Positions 11,740-60,067 of a stretch of DNA of 64,000 bases are shown piece by piece (the first letter of the stretch is position 1; each line of letters starts with the position of its first letter). Both the position numbers and the translations under genes were made by a program. Source of the stretch: a virus. A model generated the notes under the pieces. The model saw nothing but the letters and a program-made list of their open reading frames with translations, had not been told where the DNA came from and did not search any database. The stretch lies in the IMG/VR virus record IMGVR_UViG_3300029793_000467. One strand, given 5' to 3'.

Positions 11740-13380
11740 GTGGCGTGAAGAAGAAAAATCCCCTTCCCCACCGTTTTGCCGTGAGGGTGCCCCCGCCTTT
11801 AGGCGCGGGGAGGAATCACAGCTTTCTTTTTTCCATATTACGCGTAATGTGGTATTATTAGAAATATGAGCCAGAAAGTCGTGTTGGAGCGTGTGACGTT
11901 GGACGGTGCCAAACCGTTCATCGGTTATACCGGCCAGCATGACCCATGTTCCGAAAAGCTTTACGCGAATACCGGCAGTCAGGCGATGGAATGGCTTTGT
12001 GACGCTTGGCGTTACCGGTTCAACCAGTTAAGGTCGAACCGTTGCAAATACGGTAAGGACAAGACTCTCATCCCCATTGGCGGCACACCCGACACTCGTA
12101 GCGTCAGCCAGTCCCGAAGCGAATGTTCTTGGCTAACCGCAGTGCCTTCCCTTATCTTGGAATCCCCGACCAGAATCGAACGGGTCGAATGGTTCACCTC
12201 CGTGAAACGACGCAAGACCCTATTAAGCAAACGGTTGAAACCGGGGAGAATGCCCCGTTTCAAATCGTATAAGCGTGACGGGCAACGTTTCGTCTGCTGG
12301 TACAACGGGGGACGCAACGCCGTATACCGTCGAGTCAACCGCAACCACGGCATCATAACCATCACCGGACAGAACCCCAAAGGCATGTCATTGCCGGGCG
12401 AACCGTTACGCTACCGTATCCTCCTGCACGTGCGCGTCAGCCAGCCGATACGCGAATACACGGCCATCCAAGTGGATTGGACGAACCGTACCGTCGTGTT
12501 CAACAACATTCCAACGCCCATCAGTCATGAGCCGACCGGCAGGGCGGTCGGCATCGACCGTGGATGCGTGCATGCCGCCGCCGACTCCGACGGACGGTTC
12601 ATGGACCTGCCGAAAGACAGGTTGAAGGCCATCGACCGTGAAATCCGGAAGCGTCAGAAAAGCCAAGCCCGTAGGGTCAAGACAGCCGGATATTCCAGTG
12701 AGAAAGAATACGCGAATAGTGGCAGAACCAGCCGCGCATATTGGAAGACCCGGCTGGAAATCACAAAACTGCATTCGAAATCCGAACGTATATTGGATGA
12801 CGTGTACCAAAAATACACGACCCAACTCGTGTGTGACAATGATTTGATTGTGTTGGAGAACCTACGATTAGCGAACATGAGCCGACGCAACAAGCCTGTT
12901 CCCGACCCGTTGCATGAAGGCAGGTATCTTCACAATGGTCAGGTGGCGAAACGTGGACTCAACCGTAGCCTCCGACAGGCGAGCATGGGAAGACTGTCCT
13001 CCATGCTCGCATACAAGACCAAGCTTGCCGACGGCGTGGGCATGATACTCGTCAACCCGGCCTACACAAGCCAGACATGCAGTCAATGCGGGTATGTGGC
13101 GAAAGAAAACCGCGAGAGCCAAGCGGTGTTCATTTGCAAAAAATGCTCGTACAAGACGAACGCTGACGTGAACGCGGCGAAAAACATTCTCAAACGAGGA
13201 TTGGACACGCTCGCCGTCACGTCGGAAAACCTGTGGGGCGCGGACGGCACCCCGGTCGAACAGGGACGTAAGACCAACGGAAACGCTACACGCGAATCCG
13301 TGGCAGTCTCTTAGAAACCAGAACCTCTCCTACCGCAAAACGATAGGAGGAATCCCCCGGTTTAAACCGTGGGGAGGACG
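11740..13380 (+). mobile_element. IS200/IS605-family TnpB-only (IS1341-like) insertion sequence
   Basis: A single tnpB gene is flanked by subterminal hairpins (11789-11810 and 13354-13375). A GGAGGAATC word sits next to both hairpins. No TnpA gene is present. The insertion breaks the minus-strand gene array. Confidence 0.65.
11866..13314 (+). CDS. tnpB: TnpB (OrfB_IS605) RNA-guided nuclease-like transposon protein
   Basis: 482 aa. C-terminal RuvC-like region with a zinc finger (TSQTCSQCG...CKKC) and NADVNAAKNILKRG. Confidence 0.85.
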   Translation: MSQKVVLERVTLDGAKPFIGYTGQHDPCSEKLYANTGSQAMEWLCDAWRYRFNQLRSNRCKYGKDKTLIPIGGTPDTRSVSQSRSECSWLTAVPSLILESPTRIERVEWFTSVKRRKTLLSKRLKPGRMPRFKSYKRDGQRFVCWYNGGRNAVYRRVNRNHGIITITGQNPKGMSLPGEPLRYRILLHVRVSQPIREYTAIQVDWTNRTVVFNNIPTPISHEPTGRAVGIDRGCVHAAADSDGRFMDLPKDRLKAIDREIRKRQKSQARRVKTAGYSSEKEYANSGRTSRAYWKTRLEITKLHSKSERILDDVYQKYTTQLVCDNDLIVLENLRLANMSRRNKPVPDPLHEGRYLHNGQVAKRGLNRSLRQASMGRLSSMLAYKTKLADGVGMILVNPAYTSQTCSQCGYVAKENRESQAVFICKKCSYKTNADVNAAKNILKRGLDTLAVTSENLWGADGTPVEQGRKTNGNATRESVAVS

Positions 13381-15154: not shown

Positions 15155-16009
15155 TTAGCCGTGCAACGCGGTGATGATTTCGTCAGCGGCCTTACGGACA
15201 TGCTCGGCAGTGGAGCGTACAAGCTTGGGGTCAGCATCGCTCCACCCCGCCACGTAGCGGATGGAATACTCGCCGGTGTCCATTCCCATGTATCTAGCCA
15301 CCACATAGGCGACGCTTTCTGCCTCGGTCTCGTAGATGCCGCGATGCCGACCGTATTCACCTTCCGGCAACCCCTGATGGAGGAGCATGTGGGCCGTTTC
15401 GTGCAGGATGGTCTTGGCGTCCTGCCTCGGACTGTTCTTCGCGTTGAGTATGATTCGTCTGCTTCCATCCATCGTGGTGTAGCCTTTGACGTCCCTTCCC
15501 ATCGACTCATGGCCCACCCGCCAATGTTTGGATTCGAGCCAAGCGGTCATACGTCCGACGAGGCCGAGTACGTCTGCGCCTTCAAGCTCGGACGGCTTCA
15601 TCTGTTCGATGGGGTCGGTCTCCTTGTCGATGGGGTCGGTCTGGGACACGTCGAACACCGTCAAGATGGGATACCAGACTTTTTGGATAGGGTCGCCGTT
15701 CTCGTCTAGCTGTGGGTTGCCGTCTTCGTCCTTGACGGTTCTGGCGCTGAATCCGAAGATTTTCATACCGTGTTCGCCTTTGCGCACGACGCGCCCGCGC
15801 GTCTGCCATTGGCGGAATCCGGCGACCAGCGACGAGTTGCCGTTCGATTGAATGAGCATCAGCAGGATGTTGTTCCAGCTGTATTGGTGGAAACGTCCCA
15901 TGAAATCGAGGTAGCGCTGCCAAGTGCCGGAGTCCCGTAGTTCCTTCACGCCGGTTTCGATGTCCTTGCGCAGTTCCTCGATTCGTTCCCTGTGTTGCTT
16001 GTCTGCCAT
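15155..16009 (-). CDS. ardC: ArdC-like anti-restriction protein (N-terminal ssDNA-binding domain + C-terminal zincin-like metalloprotease)
   Basis: N-terminal motif WQRYLDFMGRFHQYSWNNILL (DUF1738-like). C-terminal HExxH motif LHETAHMLLH. This architecture is typical of plasmid leading-region ArdC. Confidence 0.7.
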   Translation of the reverse strand: MADKQHRERIEELRKDIETGVKELRDSGTWQRYLDFMGRFHQYSWNNILLMLIQSNGNSSLVAGFRQWQTRGRVVRKGEHGMKIFGFSARTVKDEDGNPQLDENGDPIQKVWYPILTVFDVSQTDPIDKETDPIEQMKPSELEGADVLGLVGRMTAWLESKHWRVGHESMGRDVKGYTTMDGSRRIILNAKNSPRQDAKTILHETAHMLLHQGLPEGEYGRHRGIYETEAESVAYVVARYMGMDTGEYSIRYVAGWSDADPKLVRSTAEHVRKAADEIITALHG

Positions 16010-16309: not shown

Positions 16310-16340
16310 GTTGTGTGCTCCTTGGTTTTTCGACCTTGTG

Positions 16341-16366
16341 TGTGTGAACAATTCCAGTATAGCATA
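16341..16366 (-). promoter_or_regulatory. conserved promoter element
   Basis: rc TGCTATACTGGAATTGTTCACACA. Confidence 0.55.
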
Positions 16367-17166: not shown

Positions 17167-17193
17167 TTCGGTTTTGTCTTTTCTTGTGTTTTT

Positions 17194-17217
17194 GTGTGAA
17201 CAATTCCAGTATACCAC
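17194..17217 (-). promoter_or_regulatory. conserved promoter element
   Basis: rc TGGTATACTGGAATTGTTCACACA. Confidence 0.55.
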
Positions 17218-23129: not shown

Positions 23130-23158
23130 TTTGGTTCCCTTTGTTTTCCAAGCATGTT

Positions 23159-23183
23159 TTGTGTGAACAATTCCAGTATAACG
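23159..23183 (-). promoter_or_regulatory. conserved promoter element with TTGATG -35
   Basis: rc TTGATG, a 16-nt spacer, then TTATACTGGAATTGTTCACACA. Confidence 0.6.
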
Positions 23184-23233
23184 AGAATGTAGGGGAACAT
23201 CAAATCAGCTTCCAGCCAAGCGCGATTTTAAAG

Positions 23234-29393: not shown

Positions 29394-29520
29394 TGTTTCT
29401 GTGGTCTTTTCCGTTCCTGTGGAATGTTTTGTGTGGGCGAGGTCAGCTTAACACACTAGGTGGGGGTATGCAAGCGTTCGGGGATTCGCGGTCGGATGAT
29501 TTGCGTTCGACCATACCCTT

Positions 29521-29550
29521 TGTTATACTGGAATCGTCCACAAAAAAGGG
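29521..29550 (+). promoter_or_regulatory. conserved promoter element
   Basis: TTGCGT, an 18-nt spacer, then TGTTATACTGGAATCGTCCACA. Confidence 0.55.
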
Positions 29551-46305: not shown

Positions 46306-46542
46306 TTTTTGTTCGGCTATAAAAACGAAAGAAGGCCGTATCCGTTTCATCGCGGACGCGGCTTTCTGTTTTTCTGTTCCGCCTGTAAACTTGTACGCCG
46401 TTCAACTGTTTTACTGGAATGTTTCTCCGAACGGTTTTCTGGTTCGGCGTGCCGACTTTTCGCCGTTGTTATCATCGAAACAAAAAGACATACCCCCACC
46501 ATGATTCCGTCCACACCGGAAACGAAAAAAGGAAACCAGAAC

Positions 46543-47205
46543 ATGAGAGTCAAAAACCATACGGTCATCATCACCGTCGCAATCATCAAAGGCGGTTCAG
46601 GAAAAACAACCACATCAATGGCATTGGCCGAACTATTGCACAAACGCGGGGAACAAGTCACAGTCTTGGACTCCGACAACACGGGCGGCGCGACCATGTG
46701 GGAAATGTACGTCGAACAGGAAAACCGCAGACGCAGACAGGACAATCCGGACGCGGAACCATACACGCTCGGATTCCCTGTAGTGCAAACCAACGAAGCC
46801 GTATTGAACAATCCGGAACTCATCCGCGAAAAATATTCAGGCTGGGTCATCATCGACACCCCACCGTCCGACGCCGGAGTGGTGCAGGCGGCGATAAACG
46901 CGGGCGACGTGGTGATAATCCCATGCCAGCCATCCGTATCCGATTTGACCCACGCGGGACGCACATACGCGGCGGCACGCAACGGCATCGTCCTGTTGAC
47001 ACGCGTGAAGCCGAGAACGAAACTCGCCCGGAACAGCATCAGCGAACTGGATGAGGAAGGCATCGCACGGTTCGAAACCGTCATCACGGAACGTGAAGCC
47101 GTCAAGAACATGTACGGCACGACGGAAATCGACAACAAGGAGTATTCCAGCGTCGTGCAGGAACTCATCGACTATCTGTCTGAAATCAATCTGGTGGAAG
47201 AATAA
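46543..47205 (+). CDS. parA: ParA-family partition ATPase
   Basis: Walker A IKGGSGKTTT. 220 aa. AAGGAAAC RBS. Confidence 0.8.
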   Translation: MRVKNHTVIITVAIIKGGSGKTTTSMALAELLHKRGEQVTVLDSDNTGGATMWEMYVEQENRRRRQDNPDAEPYTLGFPVVQTNEAVLNNPELIREKYSGWVIIDTPPSDAGVVQAAINAGDVVIIPCQPSVSDLTHAGRTYAAARNGIVLLTRVKPRTKLARNSISELDEEGIARFETVITEREAVKNMYGTTEIDNKEYSSVVQELIDYLSEINLVEE

Positions 47206-48669: not shown

Positions 48670-48849
48670 GTGACCACAGTTCCTTAAGGTTGATGGTTGC
48701 CGTTACCCCGGCTGGTTCCGCAGCGCGGGGTTTTCTTTTCTCTGATTCTAGTTAGAACTTTCGACCTCTCCACTGTTGCAGTCAACCTCTTCGGGCACGC
48801 GTGAGAAGGTGCCGCTATAGGTGGGTTATTCTGGCACGCCCTGCATAAA

Positions 48850-48979
48850 AAGTTGGAACTTCTGACACGGAAAGTTGGAACTTCTGACACGCTAAGTGGG
48901 CACTTCTGACACGGAAGTTGGAACTTTCGACACGGAAAGTTGGAACTTCTGACACGGAAAGTTGGAACTTCTGACACGC
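48850..48979. repeat. iteron array: 6 x ~22-bp direct repeats AAGTTGGAACTTCTGACACGG
   Basis: Four perfect and two degenerate copies at 22-bp phasing, upstream of the rep gene. Confidence 0.8.
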
Positions 48980-48989
48980 TTTCGACCTG

Positions 48990-49190
48990 AAACGCCTACT
49001 CCCATAAGGGATTTCGACACCTGCAAAAGGTATACAAAAGATTACAAAATATTAATAACCCTTGTATTCCCTTCTTTTTTCAAAAAACAAGTTTTTTTAA
49101 AAAGAAGCAAAAAATCAAAAACAGAATAAACCCATTTTTTAGATTTCATGTTTTGAAGAGATTGAACCCTGCTTAAAGGTCATCCTCAAT
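48990..49190. other. AT-rich region (candidate DNA-unwinding element of oriV)
   Basis: Strongly AT-rich (runs of A/T such as TTTTTTCAAAAAACAAGTTTTTTTAAAAAG) in an otherwise GC-rich sequence, adjacent to the iterons. Confidence 0.5.
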
Positions 49191-49402: not shown

Positions 49403-50683
49403 GTGTTCGGAAGCAAGAAAGACAAGAACGGCAAACAGCCGATGGGCCAGCAGAAGGCGAAGCAGAACCCGAACAATGAGACCGACCTGTTCGCTGACGA
49501 AAAAGAACGCAAGGACGAGATAGAACTCACCGCGTGGAAGAAGGCGTTGAAGAACACCCAGAAGTGGAAGGTTCTCATCATCCTGTTCATCTGCACCGGT
49601 CTGGTCGCCCCGATGGTTTCCGTCCGTGCAATCAACACGTTGAACGAAATGGGTTCCTACCTGACGGAGAAGTACAAGGAAATCAGCGGCGACAAGCCCG
49701 GCAAGCAGGTCGCGTTGCAAGCCGTGTACAGTTGGCTGGATGATGACAAGGGCGCTTTCCAATACGGGTATGCGAACCTGTGGTGGAATGGCGCCACTGA
49801 AGTCAGCACATCCACGTCGGACGATTCCAGCGGTTCCACCACCCAGTATTGGAGTCATCAGATGTCCCTCACCGACAAGTCGGATGGAAGCACGAGGGAT
49901 ATCACCCAGCTTGTCGCCGTCACCGATGGTGTGGCTACTGCGGTGGGAACGCCGACCGTGCTTCCCAAGACCGTCACTTCGAACAGCAATACGGACACGT
50001 ATCGTCCCGACGGTTACATTCAGCTTGACCAGAACACGAGCCTGACGAACGTGGTCAGCGCTTGGTCTAAAGCATACATCGGCAAAGACTCCAACGCTTT
50101 GACGGTACTTGTCGGAGACCCGAACAGCGACCACATGTATCAACCCGCAAGCTTGGGTTCGTATCTGAACTCGTCCCTAGACTGGCTTGTGCAATGCACC
50201 AAGGACGGCAAGACCGTTGACAAGCAGAACAAGTCCGACAATCCCGAATGGGCGGCGGCGAGCGTCAGCATCTCGTTCAAACCCTACGAGAAGAAGGTTG
50301 ACGCGAGTACGGCCAACGACCCGAACGCGGACACTGGTTCAACGAGCGACGTGGAGACGAGCGTCACCGTCCTCATCCATAATCCGACCCGTGGTAGCGC
50401 GAAAATCGTTGACTGGGGTGCCGAAGGCAGTCTGACCACGTTGAAGGCGTTCAGCAATGCCATTGACCGTTCGCTGATTGGCTCTTCCAGCAGTGATGAC
50501 GATGATGATTCTTCCGATTCCAGTTCATCGGATTCCGATAGCGGTTCCGGTGATGACGGTTCCGACAATGACGATTCCGACTCCTCCGATTCGGATTCGT
50601 CCGACAACAACGGCAGTAGTTCATCCCAGAATTCCGATGACGGTTCCGTAACCGGCGACCCCAATGAGGGGCCGAACGACTAA
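49403..50683 (+). CDS. secreted/membrane-anchored protein with Ser/Asp-rich C-terminal tail
   Basis: GTG start. N-terminal signal-anchor. C-terminal SSSSDDDDDSSDSSSSDSDSGSGDD low complexity. Confidence 0.5.
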   Translation: MFGSKKDKNGKQPMGQQKAKQNPNNETDLFADEKERKDEIELTAWKKALKNTQKWKVLIILFICTGLVAPMVSVRAINTLNEMGSYLTEKYKEISGDKPGKQVALQAVYSWLDDDKGAFQYGYANLWWNGATEVSTSTSDDSSGSTTQYWSHQMSLTDKSDGSTRDITQLVAVTDGVATAVGTPTVLPKTVTSNSNTDTYRPDGYIQLDQNTSLTNVVSAWSKAYIGKDSNALTVLVGDPNSDHMYQPASLGSYLNSSLDWLVQCTKDGKTVDKQNKSDNPEWAAASVSISFKPYEKKVDASTANDPNADTGSTSDVETSVTVLIHNPTRGSAKIVDWGAEGSLTTLKAFSNAIDRSLIGSSSSDDDDDSSDSSSSDSDSGSGDDGSDNDDSDSSDSDSSDNNGSSSSQNSDDGSVTGDPNEGPND

Positions 50684-55869: not shown

Positions 55870-55892
55870 GTCGGTGGTTTCCTAAGTTAGGA

Positions 55893-55920
55893 ACTATAAT
55901 GGGATTGTTCACACAAAAAC
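55893..55920 (+). promoter_or_regulatory. conserved promoter element
   Basis: ACTATAATGGGATTGTTCACACA. Confidence 0.55.
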
Positions 55921-55945: not shown

Positions 55946-56668
55946 ATGTCTGGCGAAAAAACCAATCCCAAATCACCGGAATACAAGAAAACCATCGACA
56001 CCACCGGCTTCGGACTCACCTGCGTCACGGAATATGGATTCGACAACGATGGACTGTTCCACCACGAATACGCCTACACTCACGGAAACAGAAAGGCCGT
56101 CGTCCAAGTGACGGGAAGCCGGAAGCCCGCCGACTGGCACACCCGCCAAAGCGCCTACGCATCCTACTATGAGGACGGACGTCAGGTAGGGAAGACCCGC
56201 GCCTACAACATCTACGAAAACGCGCAAATCAAAGCCGTCCGATGGGTCATGGGCTATGGTTCCGACAGCAAGGCCGACGAAGCATGCCGTGCGATGCGAT
56301 TGGCGAAAAGCCGACGAAACCAGCGGACATGCCAGAGAATCCCCGAAGCGCTCCGTATGGAAGTGGACGGATTGGCCAACACTCTCGGGTTGAGGATTCA
56401 CGGCAACGAGGACAACGAAACCGTCGAAACGTTCGTGGACGCCTATATCGCCGCCGCCGAAGACAATGGTCTTGTCGAGCTGAGGGAACGACAGCACGGG
56501 TACGAGACCTCAATCACCGCATGGCTGGATGGGGACGCCGGACGAAAGACGGAGGACGCTCCCGACTGGGAGAAGTTCAAGGCGACCGCCACGGCAATCG
56601 TCCCGCTCTATCAGGAGTGCAGACGCAAGGCTGCGGAAAGCGTCGGACTCGCTGAAAAACTGGATTGA
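55946..56668 (+). CDS. hypothetical protein (240 aa)
   Basis: Promoter element at 55893-55920. Confidence 0.45.
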   Translation: MSGEKTNPKSPEYKKTIDTTGFGLTCVTEYGFDNDGLFHHEYAYTHGNRKAVVQVTGSRKPADWHTRQSAYASYYEDGRQVGKTRAYNIYENAQIKAVRWVMGYGSDSKADEACRAMRLAKSRRNQRTCQRIPEALRMEVDGLANTLGLRIHGNEDNETVETFVDAYIAAAEDNGLVELRERQHGYETSITAWLDGDAGRKTEDAPDWEKFKATATAIVPLYQECRRKAAESVGLAEKLD

Positions 56669-57087
56669 GGACAACCTTTCGGTTCGACCGCCAACGTGGG
56701 AGCATCTTCCAGAATCGACCTGTAGTCCTCCAACACTCCGACCGTCACGTTCAAATCGACGGCCACGAGGAACGCTTCGCCCTCGTATACTCGTTCGGAC
56801 TGTATGTAGTCGAACGGATTGATGAGCAGCGTCGCGGTCTCCTTGCGCACATGCGTTTCGGCCTTGTCGTCGTATTGGCTCTGGCAACGGGCGTCCCCAT
56901 GTGTCCAGTGGAGCAGTTCGTGGGCCAGCGTGCATCGTTTTTGCCGTTCGTTCAGCCGTGGGTCGATGATGATGATGTGCGTCAACTCGTCGTATACGCC
57001 GTTGATGTTTTCAGGCAGTTCCTCTTCGAATATGTGTGGTGCCGGTCGGGTGAGTTCCACGGCGCGTCGCATGCACTCGTAGCTCAT
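56611..57087 (-). CDS. ImmA/IrrE-family metallopeptidase (HEXXH)
   Basis: LAHELLHWTHGD inside a DUF955-like region. The Arg-rich N-terminal part of the long ORF was excluded. Confidence 0.55.
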   Translation of the reverse strand: MSYECMRRAVELTRPAPHIFEEELPENINGVYDELTHIIIIDPRLNERQKRCTLAHELLHWTHGDARCQSQYDDKAETHVRKETATLLINPFDYIQSERVYEGEAFLVAVDLNVTVGVLEDYRSILEDAPTLAVEPKGCPQSSFSASPTLSAALRLHS

Positions 57088-57131
57088 ACGCCTGTCGAGG
57101 GTGACGTTTCTGCCGTCCAATGGGGGATGGT

Positions 57132-57512
57132 TCAGCAATCGTCCTCGCTTTCCGCTTCCGCCTGTTTGTTCGGGTCGTGGTTCGCGGCCAAGGTGAGGTC
57201 TCCCGCGTTGATTCTGCGTAGTACGTCTTGTAGCTGTTGTTCCACGATAGAGGGTTTTGTCTGGTAGCCGTTTTGTCCGGCGATTAGCTCCTCTGGCTCC
57301 ATGTCCCATGCGTGGGCGAGTGTTTCGATGTCGGCGGGGAGCCATTCGACGGTTTCGTTGTATCGTGTGGTGACGTAACTGGGGCTTTTGCCTAGTTGCC
57401 GTGCGATGTCCCGTGCGGAGAGCCGTCGGATTCCGGCTTCCGCTAGGATGCGTTGGTTGATTCTTCTGTTGAATTCGCTGGTTTGGTTTTTTCTTTTTCC
57501 CATGTTTTCCAT
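57132..57512 (-). CDS. XRE-family HTH transcriptional regulator (ImmR-like)
   Basis: LSARDIARQLGKSPSYVTTRYN resembles an HTH_3 motif. Lies upstream of the ImmA-like gene. Confidence 0.55.
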   Translation of the reverse strand: MENMGKRKNQTSEFNRRINQRILAEAGIRRLSARDIARQLGKSPSYVTTRYNETVEWLPADIETLAHAWDMEPEELIAGQNGYQTKPSIVEQQLQDVLRRINAGDLTLAANHDPNKQAEAESEDDC

Positions 57513-57550
57513 GATAACTGATTTTTAACATGAAACGCGTGGTTTTAGAT

Positions 57551-57578
57551 TTGACAGCATACTTTTATATGCTATTGT
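57551..57578 (+). promoter_or_regulatory. sigma70-like promoter TTGACA-16-TATTGT with palindromic operator-like spacer GCATACTTTTATATGC
   Basis: Consensus -35, and the spacer contains the inverted repeat GCATA..TATGC. Lies in the divergent region next to the ImmR-like gene. Confidence 0.45.
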
Positions 57579-57737
57579 CTGTAATTACAAACACTTGTTC
57601 ACCTGAAGAAACAGGAAGGTTAATGTATAACATGAGTCACGACAAGGCACGGGCGCTCTTGTGGATGGTCAGATAGACACCCCAAGAAGCCCGTTCCACA
57701 TACCCCGCCTCAAAATTGGAGGGACACACCCCCAATT

Positions 57738-57762
57738 TTGTGAATACGCCCAGTATGACTAG
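57738..57762 (-). promoter_or_regulatory. conserved promoter element variant, 230 nt upstream of ImmR-like gene
   Basis: rc GTCATACTGGGCGTATTCACAAA, followed by the palindromic hairpin CAAAATTGGGGG/CCTCCAATTTTG at 57711-57740. Confidence 0.4.
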
Positions 57763-57824
57763 AATAAAAAAACGTCCACACAATATAAGCCAGACTCCAC
57801 ACAGGCCAGACCAAAAGGAATGTT

Positions 57825-59396
57825 TTGAGAAAGACAATAGACCAGAAAATCCTCTTGGATAAACACTTCACAAAATTGGACATCCTAGGCCAGCACCTAT
57901 GGATGATGCTCCAACTGCATCCGAAGACCAATGCTCTCGGCGTATGTGATTGGACGTTTGGAAAAATCAACGCTTACACTCACGGAAACACTCCCACCCT
58001 ATTCCAACAGGCGGGCCGGGAACTCGCAAACGAAGGACTACTGGTCATAGACGAGGACACCGAAGAAGCACTCCTCCTCGACCACATCGACCTCACGGCG
58101 GACTCCGGAACCATCGAATCCGCATACCTTGGAACCGCCAGCCCAAGACTGCGCAGAATCCTAGTCAGTGAACTGAACCGAACCCTCCGACAGGGAAAGC
58201 ACTTCCCGTTCGAATGGGAGGAGATTCATGACATCCTCAGTGAATCGAATGCCGACTCCGACGAATATGAGGAGCCGCATCCAAGCGTGGAACCCGTCGA
58301 GGATGATTCCCTAAACACCTCCCAGACAGATAATTCCACCTCCAAAAAGGAAAAAGAACCCGCCAAGCAGGACGATACCGAAACCTCAAGCGTGAAACCC
58401 GTAGAAGCGGAAGACAAGCCCGTCAAGAAGCGTCGCGGTCGCCCACGCAAGAATCCACTCCCTCCGGAAGGAGAAGACAAACCGAAGCGTCGGCGCGGTC
58501 GCCCACGCAAGTACAAACCCGAACCGGTCGAACTGATGGACGGAACCATGGAGCCTCCGTTCGAGGAGCCGATGACCATGGAACAGGTCGAGGTTCTACC
58601 CCAATACGATTCCAACGCTCCAATCGACGTGGATGATGACGGGGAACCCAAGTATTTGCAGTGGGATGAAATCCCGCAACAGCTTTGGTTCTGGCATCCT
58701 CTGCCGGAAGACTGGTCTCCGACCAAGAAAGCCGCCGACTTGTACAAGGAGCTGGGCGGCGGAAGCAAGATGACCATTTTGCAAGCGGCTGACTCGTTCC
58801 GTAAGGTCTACGATTCACGTTTGTACGTGAAACGTGACAATGGTTTCAAGGCCGCTCCGCTTTCGCCTGACCGACTTTTCATCCAACAGTTGCTTCACTG
58901 GCGTAAGGAGAAGGACGAGGAAAACGAACGCAAAGCCAAGGAAAAAGCCGAGGAGGAAGCTCTCCTCAACGAGGAACCGACAATCGACGTAGACCCCATC
59001 TGGGGAAACCCCGAAGACTTGGTTTCCGCCAAAGTGGAACAGGAAAATCCCCAACAGGAGGAAGTGACCCCACTGATTCCAGACGAGGAAGTACCGAAAG
59101 TCCGCCACTACAAGCGGATGGTGCCGAAGGATTGGAAACCGAACCAGAAGCACATCGACCGAGCCAATGAACTGAACATCGACGTGAACACGGAAGCCAA
59201 GAAATTCTACAACTACAGCCATTCCAATGGCAAGAAATACTTGGACTTCGACCGCGCCTTTGACAATTGGCTTCTCAATGCCGACAAGTTTAACAGGAAC
59301 GGTCAGAGCAGACGCAAAACCCGTAGCGAGGAAGGATACGAGCACAACATGAACATGCTGAAAGAATCCCTCGCCCAAGCCGGATGGGATGAATGA
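57825..59396 (+). CDS. AT-hook DNA-binding protein (523 aa)
   Basis: Two KRRGRPRK AT-hook motifs, an acidic linker and a Lys/Glu-rich coiled region. Confidence 0.5.
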   Translation: MRKTIDQKILLDKHFTKLDILGQHLWMMLQLHPKTNALGVCDWTFGKINAYTHGNTPTLFQQAGRELANEGLLVIDEDTEEALLLDHIDLTADSGTIESAYLGTASPRLRRILVSELNRTLRQGKHFPFEWEEIHDILSESNADSDEYEEPHPSVEPVEDDSLNTSQTDNSTSKKEKEPAKQDDTETSSVKPVEAEDKPVKKRRGRPRKNPLPPEGEDKPKRRRGRPRKYKPEPVELMDGTMEPPFEEPMTMEQVEVLPQYDSNAPIDVDDDGEPKYLQWDEIPQQLWFWHPLPEDWSPTKKAADLYKELGGGSKMTILQAADSFRKVYDSRLYVKRDNGFKAAPLSPDRLFIQQLLHWRKEKDEENERKAKEKAEEEALLNEEPTIDVDPIWGNPEDLVSAKVEQENPQQEEVTPLIPDEEVPKVRHYKRMVPKDWKPNQKHIDRANELNIDVNTEAKKFYNYSHSNGKKYLDFDRAFDNWLLNADKFNRNGQSRRKTRSEEGYEHNMNMLKESLAQAGWDE

Positions 59397-60067
59397 TGAC
59401 AGCACAGGCTCCAACACAAGGAACGTTGACCACGGCACAGGCCAGCAATGGCAAACAGCATTACCCACGCGCCTTCGAACGCCCGTGCGCCATCGCGCTG
59501 TTGACCCAAATCAACAGCCATTACGGCAACAAGCCGTTGGATGACGCGCAGGTGGATAACTTCGTCAACGAAATCGACCATACGATTAAAGCCGACGAAG
59601 CCCGTCAAGCCATCATCGAATTCTTCCAGACACATTCGTCACGGGAAGCTTGGATTGCTCCCTACGACATCAATCAGATGGTCAGGAGGAAGCGTTTGAG
59701 CAGAGTGCCATCCAATGCTGAAATCAGCCGCATGCTCGACGGATATGGCATCACCGACGCGAACACCGCATGGGGATTCCGACGAGGACTAACCTACGCC
59801 ATCTCCAAAGGCGCTTCGCCGGAACGCGCTATCGAGTATGCGAAAAGACACTGTGATGACGTGAAGACCATCTCCAACACCCCAGACCAGTATCCACAGC
59901 TCACAGCCGGTGACAACGTGGGCAAGGAAGACGGTGTCACTTCATTTTCAGCGCTATTGAAAGACTTCCGGTCAGGATTGGAACGGCCATCCACACAGGC
60001 CAATCCAATCCCAGCCGAAAACAATCCAATCCAGAAAACCGATAAGAAAGAAGAAAACAAACAATGA
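59393..60067 (+). CDS. hypothetical protein (224 aa)
   Basis: ATGA-coupled ORF. Confidence 0.45.
   Translation: MMTAQAPTQGTLTTAQASNGKQHYPRAFERPCAIALLTQINSHYGNKPLDDAQVDNFVNEIDHTIKADEARQAIIEFFQTHSSREAWIAPYDINQMVRRKRLSRVPSNAEISRMLDGYGITDANTAWGFRRGLTYAISKGASPERAIEYAKRHCDDVKTISNTPDQYPQLTAGDNVGKEDGVTSFSALLKDFRSGLERPSTQANPIPAENNPIQKTDKKEENKQ

Follow-up and report, generated by a model that had tools for sequence, protein, structure and literature searches.

A candidate repressor-peptidase module of the ImmR/ImmA type on a megaplasmid-like element catalogued as a virus

A 64,000-nucleotide (nt) stretch of DNA held in IMG/VR as virus record IMGVR_UViG_3300029793_000467 (the window, below) carries two overlapping leftward genes, one for a helix-turn-helix (HTH) protein of XRE/Cro-C1 fold and one for a metallopeptidase of the ImmA/IrrE (M78) family. 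We consider it fairly probable that they constitute an ImmR/ImmA-type module, in which a repressor is inactivated by a protease, and that the module belongs to a large plasmid resembling pMP7017, the conjugative megaplasmid of Bifidobacterium. The type of module is textbook knowledge, the peptidase homologue is annotated in RefSeq, and the promoter family that surrounds the module has been published. What appears to be new, judging from sequence comparison, is the assignment of this HTH family to such a module, the signature of a leaderless repressor mRNA, a divergent promoter (P1) with two dyads and a candidate C-terminal cleavage motif, together with the apparent loss of a Cro-like gene in the window lineage and the listing of plasmid-like contigs as viral in IMG/VR. 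An original prediction, made from the letters of the window, had proposed an ImmR/ImmA-like pair at this place, and in that it was right: the HTH gene is co-oriented with, and overlaps, an intact M78 gene, and both diverge from a conserved sigma-70-type promoter with dyad symmetry.

The peptidase gene lies at 56611..57138 on the minus strand and encodes 175 amino acids (aa) from TTG 57138. In a Pfam scan the product matched Peptidase_M78 (PF06114) at 30.2 bits, against a cut-off of 22. PHROG 87, 'metallo-protease', matched it at E 1.4e-15, and in tblastn it was 45% identical to a RefSeq 'ImmA/IrrE family metallo-endopeptidase' of pMP7017 and of B. longum megaplasmids. The HEXXH motif of M78 peptidases is present as HELLH (codons 56908-56922, minus strand). 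HEL[LF]H and the E of a downstream '[RK]ETA' (+27; KETA in the window) are invariant among 11 distinct relatives, and the homologue from Curtobacterium has HEYVH as its version of the motif. With a profile score above threshold and with HEXXH and Glu intact, the protein is by its sequence a member of the M78 (ImmA/IrrE, COG2856) family. The HEXXH peptidase of the original prediction is thus upheld, but its start is more likely 57138 than the alternative Met at 57087, which would give 158 aa. The frame is open 5' of that first Met, the 17 extra codons have a constant length in all relatives, and all of them keep the motif R-x-[VI]-x-[IL]-D-R-[RH]-M in this N-terminal extension. The start codon is TTG in the window and ATG in five relatives, and on these comparisons TTG 57138 is most likely where translation begins.

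The putative repressor gene, 57132..57503 on the minus strand, encodes 123 aa, with an N-terminal five-helix HTH of XRE/Cro-C1 type at about residues 8-75. Purifying selection on it is evident from the identity among relatives, which is 0.94 at codon positions 1 and 2 vs 0.795 at position 3. A profile of 20 close homologues found no sequence match in the PDB. An AlphaFold2 model of the protein has five helices and a mean predicted local distance difference test score (pLDDT) of 64, with values of 74-86 over residues 11-75. Its top Foldseek matches all have the XRE/lambda-repressor fold (ClgR, NHTF, HigA, C.AhdI, lambda cI, SinR, DdrO and CapH), with root-mean-square deviations of 1.6-2.6 Å over 61-74 aligned residues. 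An exhaustive profile search recovered 87 remote homologues; 27 of the 49 tested match Pfam HTH_26 (Cro/C1), some match HTH_31 or HTH_3, and a broader profile reaches the XRE structures 3vk0, 3bs3 and 2b5a at 1e-4 to 2e-3. Because of this transitive evidence, from fold and from remote homologues, 'XRE-type HTH' is correct as a statement about fold. The XRE/Cro-C1 fold is supported by model and sequence, and family membership would follow through the remote homologues only. The earlier placing of an XRE-type HTH at 57132-57512 was therefore sound as to the open reading frame (ORF) and the fold, but not as to the start, the conserved one being the second ATG at 57503 (ATG 57512 is lost in several relatives), and direct Pfam scores for the protein fall below the cut-offs.

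Beyond the HTH domain, homologues of 30-39% identity have in common a C-terminal tail motif, GDhxLAAN.DP.K, despite very different linker lengths. The long HTH proteins that are linked to M78 genes carry it, as GD-h-x-LAA-[NH]-x-DP-x-K, and short Cro-like paralogues are without it.

The stop of the HTH gene and the start of the peptidase gene overlap by 7 nt (TTGCTGA, with an ATG start in five relatives), and this overlap, together with the conserved N-terminal extension of the peptidase, suggests translational coupling. The pair is found in every relative of the window lineage that we fetched (28 distinct intergenic variants), including 23 IMG/VR contigs. Three distant HTH homologues of 30-39% identity were looked up, and in each an M78 peptidase gene directly follows the HTH gene: locus L126, locus L128, which has a pMP7017-like arrangement, and locus L130 of a Curtobacterium prophage. 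In L130 the order is HTH, M78 (HEYVH), integrase, which is the immR-immA-int order of ICEBs1. The HTH and M78 genes of the window form one leftward unit, and their pairing recurs in four lineages, in which identity falls as low as about 30%.

Two of the distant loci are of interest in their own right. In L126 (5025-6186, a 39%-identical locus) the HTH-M78 genes have the MazE/PemK and Phd/YoeB toxin-antitoxin pairs as flanking neighbours, together with a Bro-N/ANT antirepressor-like gene. L130 (4001-5968, Curtobacterium sp. MCBD17_028) has a tyrosine integrase gene after the pair and, facing it, an excisionase-like gene (HTH_17) and a recombination operon of the YqaJ type; this locus is a classic prophage immunity region.

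At L126, L128, pMP7017 and the Curtobacterium prophage, the Cro position is taken by a short (84-95 aa), divergently placed paralogue of the HTH family. No Cro-like gene turned up in the 64 kb of the window, in which three Cro-like paralogues used as tblastn queries matched the HTH gene alone. A hypervariable leader, described below, sits where those relatives have the Cro-like gene. The same tblastn result leaves the idea that this leader is a remnant of a Cro-like gene unsupported.

The intergenic region between the HTH gene and the divergent operon spans 57504-57824. We aligned 28 distinct sequences of it from related contigs and used the third-codon identity of the adjacent HTH gene, 0.795, as a yardstick of conservation. 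Two blocks proved to be more conserved than synonymous sites, and the comparison shows both promoter blocks and two tandem dyads in the first to be under selection, as far as an alignment can tell.

At the repressor end of this region, a probable -10 element, TATCAT, lies at 57511..57516 on the minus strand, 7 nt upstream of ATG 57503. TA[TC]CAT is invariant in the 28 sequences, and the 6-8 nt that separate it from the ATG vary. There is no Shine-Dalgarno sequence ahead of the ATG. The pattern TAnnnT-N6/7-start also occurs at the homologous genes of the three distant lineages (TAAGAT, TAGAAT and TACAGT-GTG) and of pMP7017 (TACAAT). Because an invariant TAYCAT stands 6-8 nt from the ATG, no Shine-Dalgarno sequence is present and the arrangement recurs in five lineages, the repressor mRNA is probably leaderless and starts at ATG 57503. 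Leaderless mRNAs are common in Actinobacteria and are known for lambda cI.

P1 lies on the plus strand at 57551..57578 and reads rightward, with TTGACA at 57551-56, a 16-nt spacer and TATTGT at 57573-78. A TG at 57570-71 makes the -10 an extended one (TGc-TATTGT), and the predicted +1 is near 57585. A consensus scan gave P1 10 of 12 matches plus the TG. The scan is not significant by itself, with two promoters found vs 0.9 expected by chance, and the evidence for P1 is therefore its conservation. The -35 occurs as TTGACA, TTGACT or, in one relative, TTGATA; TGCTATTGT is invariant in the 28 sequences, and across the whole P1 block (57545-57595) 31 of 51 columns are invariant, with a pairwise identity of 0.87 as compared with 0.795 at synonymous sites.

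Within this block lie two candidate operators. Dyad A (57557..57572, GCATAC-TTTT-ATATGC, 6-4-6) is inside the P1 spacer and is the palindrome that the original prediction had seen embedded in a TTGACA-16-TATTGT promoter. That promoter is present and conserved, and the palindrome is upheld to a moderate degree: over 17 variants its mean symmetry is 4.76/6 (block median 1.8). The dyad is fully symmetric in L011/L012 (GCATGT..ACATGC) and in L013 (GCATAT..ATATGC), where changes are compensatory and fall on both arms, and it drops to 3/6 in L006 and L010. Its geometry and half-site resemble TGCGTAC-ATAA-GTACGCA of the homologous locus L126. Dyad B (57576..57593, TGTCTGTAA|TTACAAACA) is centred on the predicted P1 +1. 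It matches at 8/9 positions in the window and at a mean of 6.94/9 over the 17 variants (block median 2.6), and it is perfect in L104/L120 (TGTTCGTAATTACGAACA), again through changes on both arms. The two dyads, both described as of 6-4-6 geometry, have centres 20 bp apart and give the top two symmetry values in the P1 block over the 17 variants. At three or fewer mismatches dyad B is unique in the 64-kb window, with 0.07 matches expected. A LexA/Cheo box was considered for dyad B and rejected by inspection, the order of the half-site being inverse (GTTCG..CGAAC).

The second conserved block, 57726..57783, is bidirectional: 30 of its 58 columns are invariant, at a pairwise identity of 0.88. Its rightward promoter, P2, has a -35 TTGTGA (57738-43), a 16-nt spacer, a -10 TAGAAT (57760-65) and a box GTCCACACAA (57774-83) on the plus strand. 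Across relatives the plus strand reads TTG[TC][GA][AG]-16-TA[GA]AAT, followed 7-8 nt on by GTCCACACA. The -10 of P2 is 59 nt before the conserved TTG 57825 that starts the first gene of the divergent operon, and P2 looks like a proximal promoter of the family described next, with a slightly longer gap between -10 and box.

That family has 22 strong copies of ATGTTATACTGGAATTGTTCACACAAAA in the window (e.g. 16336-16365(-), 17188-17217(-), 23155-23184(-), 29520-29549(+) and 55891-55920(+)), each with a same-strand ORF start downstream. The start follows TATACT by 21-64 nt at 20 of the 22 sites, and by 87 and 143 nt at the other two. In pMP7017 a 34-bp motif, AWAYATGYTATACTGAATATGTCCACATAAAAWA, has been described in 19 copies that drive about 24% of the genes, and it was proposed to be a transcription-factor site, with no known regulator (PMC10832533). 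On comparison of the two consensus sequences, the promoter family of the window is this published motif, overlapping TATACT. An exact search with the 19-mer core of the motif found 83 stretches of IMG/VR contigs of 100-217 kb, and the same search across 185,579 species genomes gave a single chance match.

A weak leftward copy of the family motif overlaps P2 at about 57732-57765 on the minus strand, with a -10 CATACT (57757-52) and a box ATTCACA (57745-39). It scores 19.6 bits vs a maximum of 15.9 in 20 shuffles, the 22 strong sites scoring 27-43 bits. CAGTAT[GA]ACTA[GA]AAT is invariant in the block, and the invariance of the spacer CAGTAT[GA]AC suggests that both orientations are under selection. 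The leftward copy points towards the HTH gene and is the sole family-like site without a gene start within 200 nt. A promoter variant had been predicted at 57738-57762, and a family-like motif is indeed there, but it is oriented leftward and a separate rightward promoter overlaps it. The fetched pMP7017 locus does contain a copy of the motif; the intergenic region homologous to ours in pMP7017 has none, and a specific link of the pair to the promoter family is therefore not conserved. The earlier suggestion of such a link is not supported, and the family itself had already been published (PMC10832533).

Several repeats accompany the second block. The box TCCACACA that follows P2 is repeated 21 nt apart (57775-57782 and 57796-57803), and the L013 group (L013/L107) has a 22-nt tandem duplication of CCGTCCACACAACATAAG around the block; lineages thus differ in how many boxes follow P2. 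A perfect 13-nt inverted repeat, CCAATTTTGTGAA / TTCACAAAATTGG (57732-57744 / 57867-57879), spans 122 nt, with one arm overlapping the P2 -35 from its upstream side and the other within the coding sequence of the 523-aa gene that P2 precedes. It was rejected as a conserved element, since it is degraded in relatives (10/13 in L006 and 4/13 in L003, by-eye count).

Between the two blocks lies the hypervariable leader, 57596..57725, which holds a 17-codon ORF (57623-57676) and the left arm of a hairpin (57711-57722). Only 1 of its 130 columns is invariant, pairwise identity is 0.53, gaps make up 25%, and about 100 nt of it are absent in five relatives (L003 and L009-L012). The 17-aa ORF that had been predicted with an AGGAAGG ribosome-binding site is present, preceded by that sequence at 57613-19, but it is specific to its lineage: among near-identical variants it shows about eight nonsynonymous changes vs one synonymous change, and other lineages have unrelated ORFs of 3-32 codons in the leader. 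This substitution pattern, and the absence from other lineages, rule it out as a leader peptide. The predicted 12-bp-stem hairpin fares likewise. It exists (57711-22/57729-40, 11 of 12 positions complementary, minimum free energy -15.3 kcal/mol, z -3.4), but RNAalifold over 12 variants gives 0 consensus pairs, which rules out a conserved RNA hairpin. The minus-strand leader of the window folds with a z of about -5.2 to -5.6, and for the relatives z lies between +1.0 and -3.2 and is not negative throughout on either strand, which disposes of a structured leader. Rfam had no matches, either in the whole window at gathering thresholds or in the intergenic region at E up to 1. A scan of 56400-58000 for intrinsic terminators found none, and the hairpin is therefore not a canonical terminator. 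In sum, the comparison shows the leader to be unconstrained in sequence and not a conserved functional element.

The divergent operon begins with a Shine-Dalgarno sequence, AAGGA (57815-19), and the gene of 523 aa that starts at TTG 57825 (57815..59396 with the former, plus strand). It is followed by ORFs of 224 aa and 133 aa and then by a 647-aa adhesin-like ORF with pAdhesive_15 and Flg_new domains. This order of 523-aa, 224-aa, 133-aa and adhesin genes is syntenic with the HTH-M78 pair in all fetched relatives, and a comparable operon occurs in L128 and pMP7017. The N-domain of the 523-aa protein matches PHROG 3171 and 8064, 'replication initiation protein', at E 3e-15 and 1e-12, and tblastn of the protein finds RepA-like proteins of Arthrobacter and Gordonia phages. 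Comparison with RepA and RepB of pMP7017 led us to reject the protein as either of these, and it has no plasmid match. Searches of NCBIfam with six ORFs that neighbour the pair, including those of 523, 224 and 133 aa, gave no match, and the 523-aa and 224-aa products also lack a Pfam match. Between its N-domain and its C-terminal part, at about 58420-58530, the 523-aa protein has two RGRPRK motifs (KKRRGRPRKNP and KRRRGRPRKYK), which are AT-hook-like.

Several observations relate the window to plasmids. In tblastn against plasmids, a 1343-aa ORF is 48% identical to proteins of B. breve pMP7017 (NZ_KM406416.1, 190 kb) and also to proteins of 169-198-kb B. longum megaplasmids, and blastn of 56000-60000 against phages and plasmids gave no nucleotide-level match. 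The identity of the shared proteins (45-48%, two proteins; RepB was not sought) is far below the 70% criterion of the family. Therefore, the element is related only distantly to pMP7017, the conjugative megaplasmid of Bifidobacterium, and is not a member of its family by the 70% definition. The motif consensus of the window given above is likewise shared with pMP7017. Close HTH homologues (at least 75% identity) come from metagenome assemblies only. The window encodes DnaB, two ParA-type ATPases, an ArdC-like protein (ArdcN plus M78), methylases and a GmrSD_C protein, and it contains tandem repeats; it has no tRNA genes. No integrase was found among the window ORFs scanned, in a scan that was not exhaustive, and no excisionase was seen. 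Capsid, portal and terminase were found in 0 of 19 large ORFs of the IMG/VR relatives (nine searched against Pfam only, ten against PHROGs only). Those large ORFs encode, among others, a 2610-aa pilin-like isopeptide adhesin, RCC1/SdrD proteins, a reverse transcriptase, a primase and IS605/TnpB transposases. The matches to IMG/VR records and to actinophage proteins had raised the possibility of a jumbo phage, which we reject in favour of a megaplasmid on gene content and on tblastn against plasmids. Module and motif also occur together on IMG/VR contigs of 100-217 kb (loci L019-L125, e.g. IMGVR_UViG_3300045988_179945, 188 kb, and 3300029338_000174, 217 kb), and these contigs are probably megaplasmids misfiled as viruses.

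We suggest the following working scheme for the module. The repressor would be made from a leaderless mRNA that starts at ATG 57503 and is directed by the TAYCAT -10. Its dimers would bind the two 16-18-bp dyads, 20 bp apart, in the P1 spacer and at the P1 +1, and would keep P1 off. When active, P1 would read through the non-functional, fast-evolving leader into the operon that extends from the 523-aa protein to the surface adhesin, and the same operon may also be expressed from the proximal P2, a promoter of the 34-bp-motif type. On a signal, the M78 peptidase would cut the repressor in or near its C-terminal GDhxLAAN.DP.K segment (the putative cleavage region being in or near GDLTLAANHDPNK), and P1 would be derepressed. 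In the characterised relatives of such a mechanism, ImmR/ImmA (PMC8960796, PMC10233336), DdrO/IrrE (PMC12828697, PMC10904395) and CapH/CapP (10.1101/2022.04.27.489752), the inducing signal is DNA damage, single-stranded DNA or a cell-cell signal. The Cro-like partner of pMP7017 and other relatives would be missing in the window lineage, with the variable leader in its place.

A number of points weigh against this scheme. The HTH protein falls under all Pfam cut-offs (HTH_24 at 19.6 bits, BetR at 17.1), and the Foldseek E-values are weak (0.02-0.1) for a model whose mean pLDDT is 64. The half-sites of the dyads differ (GCATAY vs GTYTGT), and each dyad retains about half its symmetry in some lineages, so that either dyad, or both, may have no operator function; promoter function by itself could account for the conserved TTTTA and TGC of dyad A. 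Transcription of the HTH-M78 genes might also come from a leftward family-type promoter about 250 nt upstream. In the divergent operon, the first gene appears replication initiation-like at the level of PHROGs only, and it differs from RepB, which is the real initiator of pMP7017 (PMC8313286). Finally, the HTH-M78 pair is not mentioned in the pMP7017 papers (PMC10832533, PMC8313286), and the homologous genes have no entry in the supplements of PMC10832533.

Other explanations of the locus can be set against this one. Taken in full, the original prediction would make the pair a master switch, responsive to SOS or another signal, for an integrative and conjugative element or prophage, with the palindrome, the 17-aa peptide, the hairpin and the motif variant acting together in an attenuation-like manner. 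Every one of these leader elements exists in the window, where the minus-strand leader folds unusually well (z -5.2 to -5.6), and a homologous pair does adjoin an integrase in the Curtobacterium prophage. However, leader, ORF and hairpin are not conserved, with about 100 nt gone in five relatives and peptide changes nearly all nonsynonymous. RNAalifold pairs are nil, the relatives' fold z runs from +1 to -3, neither integrase nor excisionase was seen among the scanned window ORFs, and the nearest cultured relatives are conjugative Bifidobacterium megaplasmids. The complex structured leader thus falls away, and an integrating host is not supported. The comparative sequence data have largely refuted the attenuator-like model already, and we regard the explanation as a whole as improbable. 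We are just as sceptical of a global role, in which the HTH protein would be the factor that acts in trans on the 34-bp motif found plasmid-wide (TGnTATACTGGAATTGTTCACACAAA; 22 or more copies in the window and 19 in pMP7017) and would switch a quarter of the plasmid genes, conjugation and defence included. There is such a regulon, its regulator is not known (PMC10832533), a weak motif copy that is kept in all 28 relatives of the lineage overlaps P2 beside the pair, and repression of promoters in trans by a plasmid-encoded factor has been documented (PMC8313286). Yet the motif box is asymmetric and matches neither dyad half-site, dyads are what XRE dimers normally bind, dyad B is found nowhere else in the window, neither P1 nor the HTH promoter has a box at the family position, and the homologous intergenic region of pMP7017 lacks a motif copy.

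A more local role deserves somewhat more weight, although we still think it unlikely. The pair could be the sensor-regulator of a cargo or defence-like operon, as CapH/CapP is, or a toxin-antitoxin-like XRE-COG2856 pair, in either case unrelated to maintenance or transfer of the element. Its two-gene architecture, divergent from the controlled operon, matches that of CapH/CapP (10.1101/2022.04.27.489752), CapH and DdrO are among the fold matches of the HTH model, the L126 pair has MazEF and YoeB/Phd modules and also a Bro-N/ANT gene at its flanks, and the window has further defence or anti-defence genes (GmrSD_C, methylases and the ArdC-like protein). Against it, synteny of the operon is kept in every relative of the lineage, with a comparable operon in L128 and pMP7017, and such strict synteny suggests a backbone function rather than cargo; the six ORFs around the pair match no NCBIfam family, nor the 523- and 224-aa ORFs any in Pfam. 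Finally, there is a quite doubtful elaboration in which the lost Cro-like partner was replaced by a two-promoter arrangement with the bidirectional 34-bp-motif block, so that the pair is wired into the regulon or is its regulator, a master switch that senses damage or a signal. We continue to favour a protease-inactivated repressor of the ImmR/ImmA type that acts on P1.

Comparison with known systems bears on how ordinary such a module would be. ImmR/ImmA of ICEBs1 (Bacillus subtilis) and cI-like/ImmA of TnSmu1 have the same order, an XRE repressor gene and, directly after it and co-transcribed with it, an M78 HEXXH gene; the transfer or early operon of the element is read from a promoter that diverges from the pair. 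In contrast to ICEBs1 ImmR, with which it has no detectable sequence similarity beyond the fold, the window HTH has no integrase or xis beside it among the scanned window ORFs; unlike ICEBs1 and TnSmu1, the window element is a megaplasmid-like replicon, its repressor mRNA is probably leaderless, and the module is known here from sequence. In DdrO/IrrE (PprI, Deinococcus) and CapH/CapP, of the cyclic oligonucleotide-based antiphage signalling system (CBASS), an XRE repressor is inactivated when an M78 peptidase cuts its C-terminal dimerisation region, and DdrO and CapH are structural neighbours of our HTH model. IrrE and CapP have extra sensor domains and are activated by single-stranded DNA, whereas the window peptidase, at 175 aa, is minimal and has no recognised sensor domain, and the regulated genes are unrelated. 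The layout also recalls lambda CI/Cro, with back-to-back promoters about 82 bp apart (predicted transcription start sites at about 57503 and 57585) and tandem dyads over the rightward promoter, and lambda cI is made from PRM as a leaderless mRNA, as we propose for the window repressor. Unlike lambda, the window has no Cro and no S24 domain, the proposed inactivation is by a metalloprotease and not by RecA-stimulated autocleavage, and there are two candidate operators with dissimilar half-sites.

The true homologues of the module are B7017_RS00135/RS00140/RS00145 of pMP7017 (NZ_KM406416.1) and the corresponding genes of the B. longum megaplasmids. The N-domain of the long pMP7017 HTH protein is 34% identical to that of the window, and its C-terminal motif, GD.SLAA.KDP.K, is shared; so are the M78 peptidase (45% identity), the leaderless-type TACAAT-N6-ATG and the plasmid-wide 34-bp motif. 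Unlike the window, pMP7017 has a Cro-like paralogue of 95 aa in divergent orientation, and its promoter is flanked by a 19-bp inverted repeat. The window lineage, unlike pMP7017, has no Cro-like gene, has an intergenic region of 312 nt with two promoter blocks, and has a different first gene in the divergent operon.

Some further features of the window deserve mention. An ORF of 240 aa without a family, 55946-56668 (+), converges on the peptidase gene and overlaps its 3' end by 58 nt; as terminator-like sites were not found in 56400-58000, rightward read-through antisense to the HTH-M78 pair is possible. A second M78 domain is encoded at 15155-16009 (-), fused to an ArdC N-terminal domain (ArdcN 7e-12, Peptidase_M78 1.6e-8), and this is an ArdC-like anti-restriction protein of a type typical of conjugative plasmids. 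About eight tandem repeats of 21-22 nt (GAAAGTTGGAACTTCTGACACG) at 48828-49000, 3' of a ParA-type gene (46309-47205) and 5' of a 426-aa ORF (49403-50683) without a family match, look like iterons or a centromere; in pMP7017, eight direct repeats lie upstream of RepA (PMC8313286). TnpB/IS605 genes (OrfB_IS605 plus Cas12f1-like TNB), often with a Y1 transposase, occur in the window (11866-13314 (+)) and in L010, L013, L128 and L006, and the insertion sites near the module differ between relatives, which points to active IS200/IS605 turnover in this plasmid family.

Megaplasmids of the pMP7017 type are reported from about 11.5% of B. longum strains, and about 10% of screened gut metagenomes, most of them of infants and mothers, had reads that mapped to more than 40% of the genes of pMP7017 (PMC10832533). 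The module described here is a further instance of a well-understood regulatory design. Were the doubtful regulon-switch reading true, a quarter of the genes, including those for transfer, would be under damage- or signal-sensing control in a plasmid family that is widespread in the infant gut. The window locus and B7017_RS00135-RS00145 are, in any event, obvious and tractable candidates for the control of megaplasmid transfer and of the 34-bp regulon.

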